Virus genome (UHGV): UHGV-0078433
Reading direction: 5' to 3' (one strand)
Length of the DNA: 37,911 nt
Source: a virus
Position numbers and translations under genes: made by a program. The first letter of the stretch is position 1, and each line of letters begins with the position of its first letter. This document shows, piece by piece, positions 1 to 37,911 of this stretch. The notes beneath the pieces were generated by a model. It did no database searches. It worked only from the letters and a program-made list of their open reading frames with translations, and was not told where the DNA came from.

Positions 1-49
1 GCGCTAATTTTTTGTCAACGCACTGGGTTAGTTGAATTTACAACCATGC

Positions 50-445
50 TCAGTATCTCGATAAACGCAGAGAAATGATGCAGTGGTGGGCGGATTGGCT
101 TGATGAAAAAGTGGCGTAATGCCACCCATCACCCACCCTGTCATCCTGTAGCGCGCTGTTGATGAAGAACGTCACGCGCCCCAGCACCTCAACTTCCTCC
201 TCCTCCTCCCCTTCGATCGCTTCACCATCATCAGTGATTAATGTCCTACCCATTACCCGGGCAAACTGCGTTCTGCCGCCAGATAAAATCAGCAGAACCT
301 GATTCTGTACCAGCCTGGTGCACGGCTCGATAACGGCAAAGCCGGATGAGGTTTCCAGGATGCGAGTGTCGACGCCAACACCGCAGATTCGCTCCGGAGT
401 TAACCGCTGCTCTACATAGTCGCCAGCCGGCGAAGGGAAGCCCAT
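50..445 (-). CDS. UmuD'-like S24-fold protein, begins at the UmuD autocleavage position, catalytic Ser/Lys not conserved
   Basis: N-terminus MGFPSPAGDYVEQR matches the UmuD segment just after the Cys24-Gly25 cleavage site; GGAGG-type RBS 8 nt upstream; positions aligning to SGDSM and TVKKL read SSGFAV and a Gly/Glu-rich stretch. Confidence 0.6.
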   Translation of the reverse strand: MGFPSPAGDYVEQRLTPERICGVGVDTRILETSSGFAVIEPCTRLVQNQVLLILSGGRTQFARVMGRTLITDDGEAIEGEEEEEVEVLGRVTFFINSALQDDRVGDGWHYATFSSSQSAHHCIISLRLSRY

Positions 446-693
446 TACAGAACCCTCCCCATGTTACGTAGCATCCAGAGACGGTTTTCACTGTGGTCAG
501 GCGTCTTGTCGACAAAGAACTCTTGATAGCGCTGGATCCACTCGTTGGCGTCGACCTGGCTGAAATGCCAGTTTCTCGTGCGCAACTCACGGATGAAGTC
601 GTTCGTATGAAGGCACTGATAACCCTTTGGGTTTTGCTGTACTGCAGCGACAAATGCGCTGTGAATGTCTGATTGGCGGGGTATGATCTGCAC
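445..693 (-). CDS. Hypothetical 82-aa protein, stop overlaps start of UmuD'-like gene (TAATG)
   Basis: Open frame of 82 codons; only possible start is GTG at 693 abutting AGGAG with zero spacer, in-frame TAA immediately upstream; no recognisable family. Confidence 0.45.
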   Translation of the reverse strand: MQIIPRQSDIHSAFVAAVQQNPKGYQCLHTNDFIRELRTRNWHFSQVDANEWIQRYQEFFVDKTPDHSENRLWMLRNMGRVL

Positions 694-700
694 TCCTTTT

Positions 701-720
701 TACTGTTTTTATATACAGTA
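701..720 (-). promoter_or_regulatory. LexA (SOS) box, TACTGTATATAAAAACAGTA as read on the - strand
   Basis: Perfect CTGT-N8-ACAG with AT-rich spacer; as I recall it, the same 20-mer as the E. coli umuDC operator; sits at the centre of a ~60-bp palindrome (684-743) upstream of the 82-aa/UmuD'-like unit. Confidence 0.75.
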
Positions 721-776
721 GTTTTAAAGGAGATGCAGATCAATGAGGCGATACCTATCAATAATCCCGGCTGGCG

Positions 777-2606
777 TTACACCTGACCAAGGTCCTCTAC
801 GCTTTCCTGATCATTCAGCAAGGTAATGGCAACAGCAATTGAGGAGAGGATAGTTTTGATTTCTATGGTGTTCATCCCTTCCTTTTCCCGGACGTACTCG
901 CATAATTTATCGACGTCAAATATCTCTCTGATGTTTGTATATTCGGCGGCTCTTTCAAGCAAGTGCACGATTTCTTCTCGCTGACCTTCGACAAATTGAG
1001 CCTGCCATGCTTGCACAGACCTTGGCGTGAATTTAACCCCGCTATCATAAGGAGCATCTGCGATATCAAGGCCAAATCTACCCTGCAATGATTTATCCCA
1101 TGTCGCATTCAAAAATGGCAGAGAAACTAATTCAGGAGCCAGCTTTGCCATGACGCTGTAGTGGAACAATTCTTTGTTCCTGGCCTCCGGACTGAGCTTG
1201 AATACCAAACGCGCAACTTTAGGAGAGAGAAGTGGCATCAGTTTAATTCTGCCTGTGACGTTCTGAGCAAGAGGGCCGTTCCAATTGGAAAGACGGTTTT
1301 CTACGAAGAACTTCTCAGGTAAAACATCAAACCTTACAGATTTAATATTCTCCTCAAGCCAGCCGTAGAACCAACCTATTTGAGCGTTTTTATACAAACT
1401 GGAGAGAATGTTTAATGGATCCATCTTCTGATGGTAGTTTATGAACTTAGAAAGAATTGCATCTTTATTGTCCATAAAGGACAGGTTTTTAAACTGCTTG
1501 GCGTGTCCGCCGGGTCCGCGATATAGCTCGCCGCCAAAGCCAGTCATATCGGACGTTATATTTTTGATGGTGCGTTCAGCTGTTGCTCCATCCCATGGGC
1601 AAATATAACTTTCCATTCTGTAGGAATGCCAGTTAAGTTTTTCCCATGAATTAGCAAAATCCTGAGCTTTAACTTGTGGAGCCTTAACGTTAGCGACGTG
1701 CTTAACGCCGATTTTGCTGGCTATGTTCTGAGCGCAACTTATCTCCGGGCTTCCTTCCGGTCCGTTCGTAAATGTGGTAATCCTGTCTTTGAATCCTGCA
1801 CCCAATGCCAGTGCAAGGACAAGACGAGAGTCCTTACCACCGGTCAGTGATAAGCGGAGTTCACCGGGAATGTTTTCACTCGCAGCCTTAAAGTTTTTCA
1901 CCAATTCATCTACGATCAAATCCCAGTCATCACCTGAAAGGTCATTTAGATATTCAGCATCCTCACTTGAAGGCCAGATCTGATTCTTAAATTTATTGAT
2001 ATTTACTGTTGTTGAACCGATTGGTGACTTTAAATAGCTACCTGCCGTGATTGTATTTACACCTTCAAATGGTGTTTCATTTCCAAATATATTGGCATGC
2101 CCAATCAACCAGCTCAATGAGGAAAGGTTATATTTACCATTGCCTCGTAATTCATGTAATGCAGATGCTCTGTTACTTACGCAGGTCACACCATCAATTA
2201 TTGTGTAATAAATAGGACAGGTGCCTGAGAAATCGCCGAAAGCAAGGAGGCCATTCTTGGAGGTTATTGAAACGAAGTTGTAAGACCCGGAAATATTGTC
2301 AAACATGTATTCCGCATCGTTTTTTGTGGAGGCATCAAGTGCGGCGTCAGACACGTCATAGCTATCCCCCATCCTTAAAACAGGGCCATTTATCAGGCAT
2401 ACGCCGCTTTGCTTAGATGTTATTCTTTTTGATATTTCGCCTTCCGCATTGCCACATGCTGTATATGCCCAAGCTCCGCTACCAGATATTTTATTAGCCA
2501 CCTCTACTGGCTTAAATGTTAAGTTCCTTTTTAGGGCCTGCTGCGCTGTCTCGTATAATTTCTTAACAGACTCGCTTTTTCCATTTAAAACAATAAAGTT
2601 TATCAT
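777..2606 (-). CDS. Asparagine synthetase (AsnB)-family PP-loop protein with GATase-like N-domain lacking the N-terminal Cys nucleophile
   Basis: 609-aa ORF; PP-loop LSLTGGKDS; AsnB-like motifs GDFSGTCPIYYT and AGSYL; residue 2 is Ile not Cys; visibly AT-rich versus neighbours. Confidence 0.8.
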   Translation of the reverse strand: MINFIVLNGKSESVKKLYETAQQALKRNLTFKPVEVANKISGSGAWAYTACGNAEGEISKRITSKQSGVCLINGPVLRMGDSYDVSDAALDASTKNDAEYMFDNISGSYNFVSITSKNGLLAFGDFSGTCPIYYTIIDGVTCVSNRASALHELRGNGKYNLSSLSWLIGHANIFGNETPFEGVNTITAGSYLKSPIGSTTVNINKFKNQIWPSSEDAEYLNDLSGDDWDLIVDELVKNFKAASENIPGELRLSLTGGKDSRLVLALALGAGFKDRITTFTNGPEGSPEISCAQNIASKIGVKHVANVKAPQVKAQDFANSWEKLNWHSYRMESYICPWDGATAERTIKNITSDMTGFGGELYRGPGGHAKQFKNLSFMDNKDAILSKFINYHQKMDPLNILSSLYKNAQIGWFYGWLEENIKSVRFDVLPEKFFVENRLSNWNGPLAQNVTGRIKLMPLLSPKVARLVFKLSPEARNKELFHYSVMAKLAPELVSLPFLNATWDKSLQGRFGLDIADAPYDSGVKFTPRSVQAWQAQFVEGQREEIVHLLERAAEYTNIREIFDVDKLCEYVREKEGMNTIEIKTILSSIAVAITLLNDQESVEDLGQV

Positions 2607-2871: not shown

Positions 2872-5358
2872 CTACTTTGCTTCGAGATTTCCCACTCGTT
2901 CAGCCAGAGCCTCAAACTGCGATAGCAGCCTTTGATGATTACGACGATGAAGGGCAGCCTCCATCACTAATGCCTCCTCATATCGAATGCCATAGCGTGA
3001 TCCCGCTTCAACCGCCGGAACTACTACATCGCCAGTCTCTTCATCAAGAACTTCTGGTGAGCTTTCCCACTTGTCATAACAGAAGAAAGCAAACTGGTGA
3101 GGATCAAGTCCATGACGGATAAACGCTTCTTGCGCACGCTGGGCAATAATGCCGACATGCCAACGGGCTCCATCATCTCCCTTTGCCTCTATACGGTCAA
3201 TGAACTGGAACTGCACGAAATCTACTTCCGCCCAGGCATCCAGAATATCATCTGCGTACGGCGCTTCCATTAACCGTGAATCTGTCGTTTGGACGGGTTC
3301 GAGAGAACCACGAGCCAGCATCACTGGACGCGATTTTTGCCTTTCATCGGAGGTGACAGTATACGCAGCCTGAGTGAATCCGCCCGCAAATGGACTTGAA
3401 CTGGTACCAACAGTTCTGGTGTTAGCGGCGCTGGGCTGGATATTGCCGTTTACGCTCATGTTGGTGTTGATATTTACGACAGCAGAAGCAAAGCGTGCAA
3501 CTTCAGTACCGGCCGACGCTTCAGTTGATGAGACGTAGAGGCCGACAGCATTTTTACTAAGGACTGCGGTTCGGGCAAATCCACTAGAATCGCGGATCTC
3601 TCCGAGCCCAACTTGATAATCGTCAGACTGCGGGCCGGTAACGTTAGTGATGCAATGGAATACGCCACCCATTTGGTTAAACGGATCTGTCACGGATTCA
3701 AGATGAAGGCCATCTATAATGATCTTCCCGGTATTGCTACCCCCTGACTCTATGCCTACAGGGCAATTCCTTAACGTCACGTTGGTTAGTTTTTGATATT
3801 TCCTGTTCAGGCGTAAGGCAACATTGGTGTCTCTACACACAATATTGGTTACAGAACACGCCTCTGCATCACCAAACTGCCGATCACTGGCTCCGGAGGC
3901 TGTTGTTGTCTGGTATCCGGTTATTGCGTTAGCGCACTGAATATTTGATCCGTTGCAATATCGCTCCTCAATCCACACTGAAGCCCCAATTCTTCCGCCA
4001 TCATATCCGAGACATGATATATTGCTGTAATTGACGAATGGGGATTTAATATGGAGCCCGATGATGTCTGAATCAGTGGATTTAAATCGGTTCTGAATGA
4101 CTGTGATGTTTGTAACATCACTCCATACACCGCCAGTTCCACGACTGACGGTATCGCCAATGATCCCCTGCTTGATACGGACGCCAGCGCCGGGCGCTCC
4201 GACGTTACCAAAGTCTGACACATAAACGTTCGATACCTTCGGCGCCAATGACATTACGTCAACGCCTGCCCAAGGGTGGGCTGGCTCGTCAAGTTGCCCG
4301 AAGTTGAAAACGAAGATGTTATTTAATTGAAACGCGCGACTGACAGACCCATTATCCTTAATGTCGATACCATCTGCGCCGGTGTTTTCAGACCAGAATC
4401 CGTCGATGCTGCAGCCCTTATACCCGCCATTCTGAAGACCCAAGGCATAATGAGAGCAGTTCTTTACCTTGAGGCCGCGAATTGTAAGCCCCTCGATTCC
4501 TGCTCCGACAATGCCTTCAGTTTGCCGGGCGTAAGGAGTACCATTCCATAAGTAATTCCCGTCGATACAAATATCTTGAAGGCCGACGCCCCTTACTTTT
4601 GTGGTGCCGTTTTCGAGCGGTGGCTTTGACCACTGTATTACCCCATATGCAGCATCTGTGTTGTAAGCTCTTATAGTAGTAGAGTTCCATCCCTGCCCAC
4701 GGAGAATAATGTTGTCAAATGGGATGCGCAAAGCAGCAACGTTTAACGTTGCGTTGGCAGAGCTAAATTCAGTCGGATCCTGATGCACCATGTATAAGGG
4801 CCGCGGGAATACAATCGTGCCCCCGCCGGCTGCACTGAGTTCCTGCGCCTTCTGCATTATCAGTCTTGCGTTCTGCAGGGCGACAACCTGGCTAACAACC
4901 CCAGGGATTACGCCAAATGAATCAGCGGTTATTTCAATGCCACCAATTAATGACGAGCCGGTACTGGAGCTTAATCTCTGGACAAAAGAAAACGGATCAA
5001 CCAGGGAGCAATTTTCAAAATAGTATTGCTGAGCCCCATAAGCATCGTAAACAGCCATGCTGTAATCACTTTCAGTGACTATGGTTACAACCTGGCCATT
5101 ATATACTGGGTAACCTGAGGAATTAATTTTAACTGGCTGGCTGATCTGCACCAGGGAGCCATTTTCATTCCTGAAATAAACCGCTACCCTATTGGCTGGA
5201 TTTGTTGGATCCGTGTCAGGAACACCAACATAAATATTACCGTTTGCGATAGCTTTAAAGCTTCTCGGCGTAATAAATGGGATGTACGGCATTGTTACTT
5301 GCTGGTTGGCAATGATATCTGGCATTTGCTGTTCTCCAGGTGCAGAAAAGCCGCACAA
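2872..5358 (-). CDS. Tailspike: P22 gp9-like head-binding N-domain, beta-helix depolymerase-like centre, C-terminal self-cleaving chaperone (S74-type) domain
   Basis: N-terminal ~110 aa resemble P22 tailspike N-terminus (recall); repetitive beta-helix-like middle; SDERQK motif followed by ~150-aa chaperone-like tail. Confidence 0.85.
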   Translation of the reverse strand: MCGFSAPGEQQMPDIIANQQVTMPYIPFITPRSFKAIANGNIYVGVPDTDPTNPANRVAVYFRNENGSLVQISQPVKINSSGYPVYNGQVVTIVTESDYSMAVYDAYGAQQYYFENCSLVDPFSFVQRLSSSTGSSLIGGIEITADSFGVIPGVVSQVVALQNARLIMQKAQELSAAGGGTIVFPRPLYMVHQDPTEFSSANATLNVAALRIPFDNIILRGQGWNSTTIRAYNTDAAYGVIQWSKPPLENGTTKVRGVGLQDICIDGNYLWNGTPYARQTEGIVGAGIEGLTIRGLKVKNCSHYALGLQNGGYKGCSIDGFWSENTGADGIDIKDNGSVSRAFQLNNIFVFNFGQLDEPAHPWAGVDVMSLAPKVSNVYVSDFGNVGAPGAGVRIKQGIIGDTVSRGTGGVWSDVTNITVIQNRFKSTDSDIIGLHIKSPFVNYSNISCLGYDGGRIGASVWIEERYCNGSNIQCANAITGYQTTTASGASDRQFGDAEACSVTNIVCRDTNVALRLNRKYQKLTNVTLRNCPVGIESGGSNTGKIIIDGLHLESVTDPFNQMGGVFHCITNVTGPQSDDYQVGLGEIRDSSGFARTAVLSKNAVGLYVSSTEASAGTEVARFASAVVNINTNMSVNGNIQPSAANTRTVGTSSSPFAGGFTQAAYTVTSDERQKSRPVMLARGSLEPVQTTDSRLMEAPYADDILDAWAEVDFVQFQFIDRIEAKGDDGARWHVGIIAQRAQEAFIRHGLDPHQFAFFCYDKWESSPEVLDEETGDVVVPAVEAGSRYGIRYEEALVMEAALHRRNHQRLLSQFEALAERVGNLEAK

Positions 5359-30450: not shown

Positions 30451-31101
30451 ATGAATACACAACTGATGGGTGAGCGTATTCGCGCTCGCAGAAAAGAACT
30501 CAAGATTAGGCAGGCTGCCCTTGGCAAGATGGTTGGCGTGTCTAATGTTGCTATTTCCCAATGGGAGCGATCTGAAACTGAGCCCAATGGCGAAAACCTA
30601 TTGGCCTTAGCCAAGGCTTTGCAGTGCTCCCCTGATTACCTGTTGAAAGGAGAGGATAGTCTTTCAAACATTGCCTATCACAGCAGGCATGATCCAAGAG
30701 GTTCGTATCCTCTAATTAGTTGGGTAAGCGCAGGATGTTGGATGGAAGCTGTAGAGCCATATCATAGGCGTGCAATAGATAACTGGTACGACACAACGGT
30801 AGATTGTTCTGAAGACTCTTTTTGGCTCGACGTTAAAGGCGATTCAATGACTGCCCCGGCAGGACTGAGTATTCCTGAGGGGATGATTATTCTCGTCGAC
30901 CCAGAAGTCGAACCACGTAATGGAAAGCTGGTAGTCGCCAAACTTGAAGGAGAAAACGAGGCGACATTCAAAAAGTTAGTTATTGATGCCGGTAGAAAAT
31001 TCCTGAAACCACTCAATCCACAATACCCAATGATTGAAATCAATGGGAACTGTAAAATCATTGGCGTTGTCGTTGATGCCAAGCTAGCAAACCTTCCTTA
31101 A
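30451..31101 (+). CDS. c2: C2 repressor (LexA-like S24 family, P22-type)
   Basis: Near-identical to P22 C2 as recalled; intact GDSM and KK cleavage motifs. Confidence 0.95.
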   Translation: MNTQLMGERIRARRKELKIRQAALGKMVGVSNVAISQWERSETEPNGENLLALAKALQCSPDYLLKGEDSLSNIAYHSRHDPRGSYPLISWVSAGCWMEAVEPYHRRAIDNWYDTTVDCSEDSFWLDVKGDSMTAPAGLSIPEGMIILVDPEVEPRNGKLVVAKLEGENEATFKKLVIDAGRKFLKPLNPQYPMIEINGNCKIIGVVVDAKLANLP

Positions 31102-36594: not shown

Positions 36595-36813
36595 ATGTAC
36601 TTGACACTTCAGGAGTGGAACGCACGCCAGCGGCGCCCAAGAAGCCTTGAAACAGTTCGTCGATGGGTACGCGAATGCAGGATATTCCCTCCTCCGGTTA
36701 AGGATGGAAGAGAGTATCTGTTCCACGAATCAGCGGTAAAGGTTGACTTAAATCGACCAGTAACAGGTAGCCTTTTGAAGAGGATCAGAAATGGGAAGAA
36801 GGCGAAGTCATGA
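36595..36813 (+). CDS. xis: Excisionase Xis (lambda-type)
   Basis: MYLTLQEWNARQRRPRSLETVRRWVRECRIFPPP... as recalled for lambda Xis; 23-nt overlap with int. Confidence 0.95.
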   Translation: MYLTLQEWNARQRRPRSLETVRRWVRECRIFPPPVKDGREYLFHESAVKVDLNRPVTGSLLKRIRNGKKAKS

Positions 36814-37861
36814 GCGCCGGGATTTACCCCCTAACCTTTATATAAGAAACAATGGATATTACTGCTACAGGGACCCAAGGACGGGTAAAGAGTTTGGATT
36901 AGGCCGAGACAGGCGAATCGCAATCACTGAAGCTATACAGGCCAACATTGAGTTATTTTCAGGACACAAACACAAGCCTCTGACAGCGAGAATCAACAGT
37001 GATAATTCTGTTACGTTACATTCATGGCTTGATCGCTACGAAAAAATCCTCGCCGGCAGAGGAATCAAGCAGAAGACACTCATAAATTACATGAGCAAAA
37101 TTAAAGCAATAAGGAGGGGGCTGCCTGATGCTCCACTTGAAGACATCACCACAAAAGAAATTGCGGCAATGCTCAATGGATACATAGACGAGGGCAAGGC
37201 GGCATCAGCCAAGTTAATCAGATCAACACTGAGCGATGCATTCCGAGAGGCAATAGCTGAAGGCCATATAACAACAAACCCGGTCACTGCCACTCGCGCA
37301 GCAAAATCAGAGGTAAGGAGATCAAGACTTACGGCTGACGAATACCTGAAAATTTATCAAGCAGCAGAATCATCACCATGTTGGCTCAGACTTGCAATGG
37401 AACTGGCTGTTGTTACCGGGCAGCGAGTTGGGGATTTATGCGAAATGAAGTGGTCTGATATCGTAGATGGCTATCTTTATGTCGAGCAAAGCAAAACCGG
37501 CGTAAAGATTGCCATCCCAACAACATTGCGTGTTGATGCTCTTGGGATATCAATGAAGGAAACACTTGATAAATGCAAAGAGATTCTTGGCGGAGAAACC
37601 ATAATTGCATCTACACGTCGTGAACCGCTTTCATCCGGCACAGTATCAAGGTATTTTATGCGCGCACGAAAAGCATCAGGTCTTTCCTTCGAAGGGGATC
37701 CGCCTACCTTTCACGAGTTGCGCAGTTTGTCTGCAAGACTCTATGAGAAGCAGATAAGCGATAAGTTTGCTCAACATCTTCTCGGGCATAAGTCGGACAC
37801 CATGGCATCACAGTATCGTGATGACAGAGGCAGGGAGTGGGACAAAATTGAAATCAAATAA
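36791..37861 (+). CDS. int: Tyrosine integrase (lambda Int)
   Basis: Near-identical to lambda Int as recalled; C-terminal catalytic HxxR...Y region. Confidence 0.95.
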   Translation: MGRRRSHERRDLPPNLYIRNNGYYCYRDPRTGKEFGLGRDRRIAITEAIQANIELFSGHKHKPLTARINSDNSVTLHSWLDRYEKILAGRGIKQKTLINYMSKIKAIRRGLPDAPLEDITTKEIAAMLNGYIDEGKAASAKLIRSTLSDAFREAIAEGHITTNPVTATRAAKSEVRRSRLTADEYLKIYQAAESSPCWLRLAMELAVVTGQRVGDLCEMKWSDIVDGYLYVEQSKTGVKIAIPTTLRVDALGISMKETLDKCKEILGGETIIASTRREPLSSGTVSRYFMRARKASGLSFEGDPPTFHELRSLSARLYEKQISDKFAQHLLGHKSDTMASQYRDDRGREWDKIEIK

Positions 37862-37911
37862 TGATTTTATTTTGACTGATAGTGACCTGTTCGTTGCAAC
37901 AAATTGATAAG
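37862..37911. promoter_or_regulatory. Int-proximal att arm (lambda P' arm-type Int sites); core lies just beyond window end
   Basis: Reverse complement reads CTTATCAATTTGTTGCAACGAACAGGTCACTATCAGTCAAAATAAAATCATTA, matching the lambda attP P' arm as recalled. Confidence 0.65.

Follow-up and report, generated by a model that had tools for sequence, protein, structure and literature searches.

What can a phage do with a UmuD′ homologue that begins where UmuD is normally cut, that has lost the residues that do the cutting and that has no umuC beside it? In enterobacteria, damage-induced mutations arise mainly through Pol V, whose activity waits on a slow step, the RecA-dependent cleavage of UmuD. 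We address this question for a locus at the left end of a 37,911-nt stretch of viral DNA (UHGV-0078433, hereafter the window). The window is a P22-like temperate phage genome that encodes a tailspike with a P22 head-binding domain, a C2-type repressor (HTH and S24 domains), CII, N and, at its right end, a lambda-type integrase. The features on which the argument rests are the following.

50..445, minus strand: UmuD′-like open reading frame, 131 aa in the window; its ATG (445-443) overlaps the stop of the partner gene (TAATG).
404..445, minus strand: N-terminal arm, residues 1-14, MGFPSPAGDYVEQR, the UmuD′ arm motif (NCBIfam HumD match; phmmer against the PDB).
134..445, minus strand: conserved part, residues 1-104, a degenerate S24 beta-domain without Ser/Lys and with the acidic motif ITxDGExIEGE.
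131..133, minus strand: codon 105, with a 1-nt deletion that removes the normal stop of the family (DNA comparison with locus L004 and other loci).
53..133, minus strand: frameshift tail, residues 105-131, antisense to the integrase relic.
36..120, plus strand: integrase relic, the 3′ end of a gene of IntS/HK620 type (...YLDKRREMMQWWADWLDEKVA, then stop), 92-96% identical to the int 3′ ends of HK620, IME10, N7 and others.
445..684, minus strand: partner gene, 79 aa, PHROG 3893, predicted winged helix; start ATA 684-682, stop TAA 447-445.
693..698, minus strand: Shine-Dalgarno sequence AAGGAG of the partner gene, 8 nt ahead of the conserved start position.
701..720, no strand assigned: LexA (SOS) box TACTGTATATAAAAACAGTA, the same 20-mer as the box upstream of K-12 umuD and of the phage Oslo umuDC.
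738..743, minus strand: -35 hexamer TTGATC of the cassette promoter, the same as in the E. coli K-12 umuDC promoter.
30451-31101: C2 repressor, matching the S24 model over its full length (positions 1-116/116, E 1e-30).
36791-37861: integrase of the window, lambda-type, with an Arm-DNA-binding domain.

First, we asked what kind of protein the locus encodes. The original prediction of a pre-truncated UmuD′ is borne out at the N-terminus: the open reading frame is present, running from 445 to 50 on the minus strand, and its residues 2-14 (GFPSPAGDYVEQR) equal UmuD 25-37 at 12 of 13 positions. The protein opens with Met-Gly, the glycine corresponding to UmuD Gly25, and no Ala-Gly or Cys-Gly cleavage site lies ahead of the domain. 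When the PDB was searched with phmmer, residues 2-20 aligned to E. coli UmuD 25-42; as a sequence search for whole-protein homology this returned the 18-residue arm as the sole match, and the rest of the protein required a profile and a structure model. The NCBIfam HumD model (NF051876) also matches residues 1-21 only (E 7e-7), and at 29.2 bits the protein falls far below the equivalog cut-off of 120 bits. Beyond the arm, residues 1-103 align with positions 1-103 of the 106-position profile of PHROG 3469, “UmuD-like protein” (E 1.8e-43). The family profile aligns to UmuD 25-136 and an S24 beta-fold is present in the predicted structure, so that the S24 affinity is upheld both by profile homology and by the model. 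In this model the arm has a low pLDDT (66), as expected of a flexible arm. The Pfam S24 model (PF00717) gave no match to the protein at E values up to 1, none of 120 homologues has a precomputed Pfam domain, and neither the UmuD′-like protein nor its 79-aa partner is matched in PADLOC or Pfam. The protein is very acidic (pI 4.3). Residues G2, F3, S5 and P6 are among just seven nearly invariant positions of the family, and the arm is the best-conserved stretch of the orphan subfamily.

The protease centre is missing. In the profile alignment, an 11-residue deletion spans UmuD G58-D68, including Ser60, with its junction between S33 and S34, and UmuD Lys97 aligns to Ala62, within “QFARVMG”. Across the family alignment there is no conserved serine at the deletion junction, and the Lys97 column is variable (A, G, V). 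With Ser60 and Lys97 both gone, the UmuD′-like protein is, on this alignment, CATALYTICALLY dead. The absence of the dyad and the position of the serine site (“SSGFAV”) had been correctly predicted, but the lysine had been placed in the wrong register: the Gly/Glu-rich stretch proposed for it aligns to UmuD 111-125 and forms a conserved acidic motif specific to the family, ITxDGExIEGE. The Ser/Lys dyad is required only for making UmuD′, not for the function of UmuD′ in mutagenesis. The UmuD residues that hold RecA*, Y52, F94, D91 and E93 (PMC9926225), align to the variable R28, T59, G56 and R58. The UmuD arm residues F26 and P29, which touch RecA (PMC9926225), are kept as F3 and P6 in those UmuD′-like proteins that carry the arm.

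The C-terminal extension of about 25 aa that had drawn attention to the protein is real but trivial, being the frameshift product of a 1-nt deletion in a family whose members normally have 105 aa. Locus L004, which is 97% identical, reads GTG GTG TGA (V V stop) at this place, and the window, L003 and the prophage of E. coli N9 read GTG GGT GAT GGG. One T has been lost and the stop with it, so that the frame runs on for 26 more codons, antisense to the final ~90 nt of an IntS-type integrase gene. Of this gene the window retains a relic, the last ~28 codons, and the body of intS is gone; in E. coli N9 a complete intS converges on the cassette at the position of the relic, beside tRNA-Arg (argW). 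We rejected the idea that the tail marks a recombination junction with an integrase module, since DNA comparison reveals the 1-nt deletion also where intS is intact. The tail is an accident rather than a feature. Family members end in ...DDRVV (E. coli clade) or ...DDxPxI (wider family); the acidic P-[VI]-[IML] tail is found in the wider family, in HumD and in gp26, the E. coli subclade has DDRVV instead, and the window copy is frameshifted. In E. coli N9, PGAP labels the UmuD′-like gene “incomplete; missing C-terminus”. Three proteins (P0001-P0003) that are 84-90% identical to that of the window have the extended form too, which indicates that it is tolerated, although expression may still be low.

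The relic at the left end and the working lambda-type integrase at the right end indicate that the integration module was swapped and left a scar. The last 50 bases of the window, recognisable as the P′ arm of lambda attP, follow the right-end integrase, both together spanning 36791-37911, and the window ends ~24 nt short of the att core. Between the tailspike and the SOS cassette sits a 609-aa open reading frame (777-2606, minus strand) with weak similarity to asparagine-synthase/QueC-type ATP-pyrophosphatases (TIGR01536, E 6e-10, far under the cut-off). Its GC content is 0.39-0.45 against ~0.49-0.52 in its neighbours, it is missing from the same slot in E. coli N9, and it is probably a moron. 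The tailspike itself (2872-5358, minus strand) combines the P22 head-binding domain with a C-terminal Peptidase_S74 intramolecular-chaperone domain of the endosialidase type.

How is the gene expressed? The view of a gene without an upstream partner had to be abandoned, a coupled 79-aa gene and a LexA box having been overlooked, as had the origin of the tail in a frameshift. The K-12 umuDC promoter has the same -35 hexamer, the same 17-nt spacing to TACTGT, the same ATTGATAG further upstream and the same 20-bp LexA box, which argues for a umuDC ancestry of the cassette. The pattern CTGT-N8-ACAG occurs a single time in the window and at least once in 28 of 100 shuffles, and is therefore non-significant alone. 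Of 80 related IMG/VR loci, 78 have it in this position, and most keep the -35 hexamer as well; at 45 of 53 genome loci it is found within 450 nt upstream of the UmuD′-like gene. Judged by its sequence only, the cassette promoter is predicted to be LexA-controlled. The partner gene is present in 77 of the 80 IMG/VR loci, where the stop/start overlap (TAATG or TGATG) is conserved, in about half of the genome loci and in nearly all loci of E. coli type. Judging from the overlap, the UmuD′-like gene is translationally coupled to this partner. The partner starts with ATA in the window, in L003 and in E. coli N9, against ATG (GTG in two) in 54 further distinct sequences. Because of the coupling to an ATA-start gene, both cassette proteins may be poorly made in the lineage of the window. 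Altogether, the cassette appears to be a phage-borne derivative of a umuDC operon.

The partner is modelled with high confidence as a winged helix, and it is near-neutral (pI 8.0), with a third helix that is not basic. It has no profile similarity to the N-domain of LexA, nor to DinI (hhalign probability 0.3%), its predicted fold being a winged helix and not that of DinI, and a fold search of BFVD returned one true homologue and otherwise generic winged-helix matches only. In E. coli N9 (L149 4316-4555), the partner carries the PGAP name “PH domain-containing protein”; modelling gives a winged helix, and Pfam does not match the window copy.

We then considered whether a umuC accompanies the gene. 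The claim that none follows it is confirmed: tblastn finds no umuC anywhere in the window, and in the near-identical N9 prophage the DNA past the left end of the window carries intS, tRNA-Arg and yfdC. The term orphan suits the subfamily of the window, but not the family as a whole, in which umuC-linked relatives exist. The 53 genome loci can be split in two types by the GFPSPA arm. Type A, which has the arm like the window, accounts for 44 loci, none of which adjoins umuC, and among the 80 viral loci the armed subfamily adjoins umuC once. In IMG/VR locus L030, the partner, an armed dead gene and umuC follow each other (TGATG overlap), with one in-frame stop in umuC. Type B, arm-less and 93-101 aa long, accounts for 9 loci, 6 of which adjoin umuC, in the orders dead-umuC (L133, L134, L135), dead-umuD-umuC (L137) and umuD-umuC-dead (L143, L131). 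The prophage umuDC operons with the dead form as a third gene lie at 3977-5979 in L137, 1955-3956 in L143 and 22-1364 in L131; L143 and L131 adjoin a dusA-adjacent integrase.

The Enterobacter phage CobraSix has, in the same slot, a LexA box, gp29 (a 101-aa member of the dead family) and then a 422-aa UmuC with all Pfam domains (IMS, IMS_C, DUF4113). This UmuC is 91-93% identical to those of PHB10 and Oslo, in which the first gene is a normal cleavable UmuD, so that the dead gene fills the umuD slot beside the same polymerase. Where the dead gene is the sole umuD-type gene of the operon, the dN/dS of UmuC is 0.03-0.06. As the umuC-linked relatives are mostly arm-less, the arm is dispensable where a cognate UmuC is present; perhaps the orphans keep the arm of the host since they must fit the host machinery.

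The family comprises 985 clusters at 90% identity, almost all of 105 aa, and 168 clusters at 50% identity. It is prophage and phage cargo of Enterobacteriaceae and Erwiniaceae, always located between the tail fibre or tailspike and att/int, and in most IMG/VR loci the UmuD′-like gene is the last one before the end of the predicted provirus. It is carried by 53 sequenced phages of Klebsiella, Enterobacter, Escherichia (mEp390, Eeyore, Flotzy) and Cronobacter (phiES15), and among representative genomes by many Enterobacteriaceae as well as Erwinia, Pantoea and Izhakiella. Hosts of temperate phages with the cassette are E. coli, Klebsiella, Enterobacter, Citrobacter, Leclercia, Cronobacter, Pantoea and Erwinia. 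In E. coli the cassette is uncommon (32 of 5426 complete genomes by megablast) and annotated “hypothetical protein”; besides N9, the strain Nord122 has a copy nearly identical to that of the window. At orphan loci, dN/dS is 0.10 for the UmuD′-like gene and 0.15 for the partner, from which it follows that both are maintained. In mEp390 (L083 1909-2175), a partner-less dead UmuD′-like gene has as its neighbours attP and, in divergent orientation, a DinI homologue, which places two cargo genes that modulate SOS next to each other. HumD made pre-truncated phage homologues of UmuD′ known as early as 1999, databases label the family “UmuD-like”, and the born-activated orphan state has precedent. Our literature searches found no study of the dead UmuD′-like family and no published description of its family-wide loss of the catalytic loop, of the coupled winged-helix partner, of the retained umuDC promoter or of the dead form as a third gene of phage umuDC operons.

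What, then, might such a protein do? With a probability of roughly 45%, we propose that it acts on UmuC/Pol V as a cleavage-independent analogue of UmuD′. A place in Pol V biology, which was part of the original prediction, is supported by the umuDC promoter and operator, by the HumD-type tail of the wider family, by the capacity of HumD to complement UmuD′ and by relatives in operons with a selected umuC. The homology to UmuD 25-136, the S24 fold, the selection on the orphan form and its conserved arm speak for it as well. Within Pol V biology, the original prediction offered either a cleavage-independent UmuD′ working with host UmuC or a dominant-negative partner, and the data do not distinguish an activating from an inhibitory effect. 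That the protein binds UmuC is inferred from these observations, as are the direction in which it works and any part played by the partner.

On this proposal, LexA would keep the cassette off, and heavy DNA damage, which is also the prophage-inducing signal, would switch on the umuDC-type promoter and operator. The cassette would then yield the small winged-helix protein and, by translational coupling, the UmuD′ analogue. As the latter begins at the post-cleavage glycine, RecA-stimulated self-cleavage would be unneeded, and a protease loop no longer needed could have been shed. The analogue would dimerise through its S24-like beta-domain and engage Pol V components, its host-like GFPSPAxDYVEQR arm plugging it into host UmuC (and RecA), as P1 HumD does. 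Expression from a tight umuDC operator would come at high damage, together with prophage induction, and the induced phage would gain early translesion synthesis on its own damaged DNA. In addition, Pol V may be retuned by mixing of the analogue with host UmuD/UmuD′. On the most economical view, the family would be the end of a stepwise series that leads from phage umuDC to a pre-activated UmuD′ of HumD type and to a form without the protease loop. Against an action on Pol V stands the winged-helix fold of the partner, which has no known place in Pol V, and, in the window copy, the weak ATA start upstream and the frameshifted C-terminus. The low HumD score, the variable residues at the RecA*-contact positions and the near absence of umuC beside armed members also count against it.

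The opposite effect on the same target, inhibition of host Pol V, is a good deal less probable. The protein would form mixed dimers with UmuD/UmuD′ or occupy UmuC unproductively, with less error-prone synthesis during phage replication (an anti-mutator effect) or a diversion of UmuD′ to degradation as the outcome. The operons in which the dead gene is kept beside a normal umuD (dead-umuD-umuC in L137, umuD-umuC-dead in L143) suggest a regulator better than a simple substitute, and both the loss of the RecA*-contact residues of UmuD and the conservation of the host-like arm in orphans only would suit an inhibitor. However, operons of CobraSix type contain the dead gene and a strongly selected UmuC only, an arrangement in which a pure inhibitor beside its target polymerase makes little sense, and HumD, the closest characterised relative, is an activator.

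The copy in the window may be a special case. It carries two lesions, the change of the partner start from ATG to ATA and the 1-nt deletion that alters the C-terminus, both common to N9 and L003, and this, together with the PGAP label of the N9 copy and the rarity of the cassette in E. coli, would be expected of a gene on its way to becoming a functionless pseudogene. We nevertheless regard this as unlikely, given that both reading frames are otherwise intact, that the core loses its last residue only, that the extended form recurs in P0001-P0003, that ATA is an allowed, if weak, start and that selection at the family level is strong.

It is similarly doubtful that the winged-helix protein joins the dead S24 module in an SOS effector of two proteins, built from parts of umuD and no longer a polymerase subunit. 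If they did, the pair might be a non-cleavable LexA-like switch or decoy with which the prophage resets the SOS and mutagenesis programme of its host, or of rival prophages, at induction. We give still less credit to a split, non-cleavable LexA-like regulator or antirepressor whose two proteins would act, after SOS induction, on DNA or on an S24 repressor (C2, LexA or the repressors of other prophages) and so change transcription. The order of a winged helix and then an S24-like module, translationally coupled, does mirror the domain order of LexA, and the cassette is predicted to be LexA-controlled like the antirepressor genes tum and those of the Gifsy phages. But the partner is unlike the LexA N-domain by profile, is near-neutral and lacks a basic third helix; half of the family has no partner; the inherited umuDC operator is the only operator conserved upstream; and no antirepressor match was found in Pfam or PHROGs, nor in NCBIfam or PADLOC. 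The original proposal of an antirepressor against C2 and other LexA-like repressors finds no support, as the S24-like profile has no similarity to C2, C2 has a full-length S24 domain of its own and the cassette is found in phages with unrelated immunity regions. C2, which had been called adjacent, lies at 30451-31101. A C2-specific mimic was also considered and dropped, the profile comparison with the C2 of the window giving a probability of 1%. Finally, it is very improbable that the acidic protein sits in the RecA* groove as an uncleavable, DinI-like substrate mimic that tunes the cleavage of LexA, UmuD or repressors, for although F3 and P6 match the RecA-touching F26 and P29 of UmuD (PMC9926225) and the conserved patch DGExIEGE is strongly acidic, the chief sites by which UmuD binds RecA* (the Y52/F94 pocket and D91/E93) have not been retained and the arm-less subfamily lacks F3 and P6.

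We return to the proposed action on Pol V. If the cassette supplies a ready-made UmuD′, or blocks that of the host, lysogeny would alter the speed and the amount of mutation in damaged cells, and this would bear on antibiotic-induced mutagenesis in clinical lineages. Moreover, the passage from cleavable UmuD to HumD and gp26, to dead proteins with the arm and to dead proteins without it forms a natural series of stepwise losses, from which one can read what portions of UmuD′ remain necessary when it no longer has to be cleaved. The anti-correlation of arm and umuC offers a direct handle on the purpose of the conserved GFPSPA arm.

Comparison with known systems helps to place the cassette. The small antirepressor genes of phage 186 (Tum) and of the Gifsy phages (GfoA/GfhA) are controlled by SOS boxes, and those of the Gifsy phages lie in bicistronic operons. 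The window differs from these systems in that its repressor C2 has a full-length S24 domain and its UmuD′-like protein is of UmuD descent. ImpC is another small protein of this setting and is DinI-like. The impCAB operon of plasmid TP110, which figures in the reference list of PMC11541004, is an SOS-controlled umuD-type operon with a small third gene placed first, ahead of the homologues of umuD and umuC. A small first open reading frame is thus common to impCAB and the window, but in the window it encodes a winged helix without profile similarity to DinI.

The UmuD/UmuD′ of E. coli has the same fold, an identical promoter and LexA box, and an arm that agrees at 12 of 13 positions. In contrast, the window protein lacks the N-terminal 24 residues, the cleavage site, the dyad and the RecA*-contact residues, and is ~21% identical overall. 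The umuDC operons of phages PHB10, Oslo, ENT39118 and ST846-OXA48phi9.2 occupy the same slot, from tail fibre or tailspike to att/int, behind the same LexA box, but encode a cleavable UmuD of 139-160 aa and UmuC, neither of which the window has. In Oslo (NC_018279; L086 1080-1498), what is annotated as a 79-aa “UmuD-like protein” corresponds to the 3′ portion of a full-length UmuD reading frame of 139 aa. The true ATG of this frame lies 179 nt further upstream, shortly behind the LexA box, and the start given in RefSeq is wrong. CobraSix and L133-L135 connect both worlds, with the dead family in the umuD position beside a UmuC that is 91-98% identical to that of the phage umuDC type.

The nearest known systems are P1 HumD and N15 gp26. 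Pre-truncated orphan UmuD′ genes are widespread among the temperate phages of enterobacteria, being found in P1, P7, D6, N15, phiKO2, HK639, HK140, Huey and BTP1. The Huey gene (L001 3219-3698, in the same slot) is a relative of the N15 gp26 type, with GATHY for GDSM and the lysine kept; its C-terminus is cut short and it is annotated with a spurious 61-aa N-terminal extension. HumD keeps both Ser and Lys, gp26 keeps Lys and has Thr in place of Ser, and both have a full-length catalytic loop in 128-129 aa; the family of the window differs by the deletion of 11 residues around the Ser, the absence of the Lys, a shortened loop after the strand “FAR”, a length of 105 aa and, usually, a coupled winged-helix partner. 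HumD and gp26 nonetheless start with MGFPSPA like the family of the window, just after the UmuD cleavage site, are lone genes of temperate phages without umuC like that of the window, and share with the wider family the C-terminal ...DDxPxI tail (DDCPVI) that is missing from UmuD. HumD is LexA-regulated, as predicted for the cassette of the window. The P1 record lists a LexA site for HumD and functional complementation of E. coli UmuD′ (McLenigan 1999, cited in PMC8460599).
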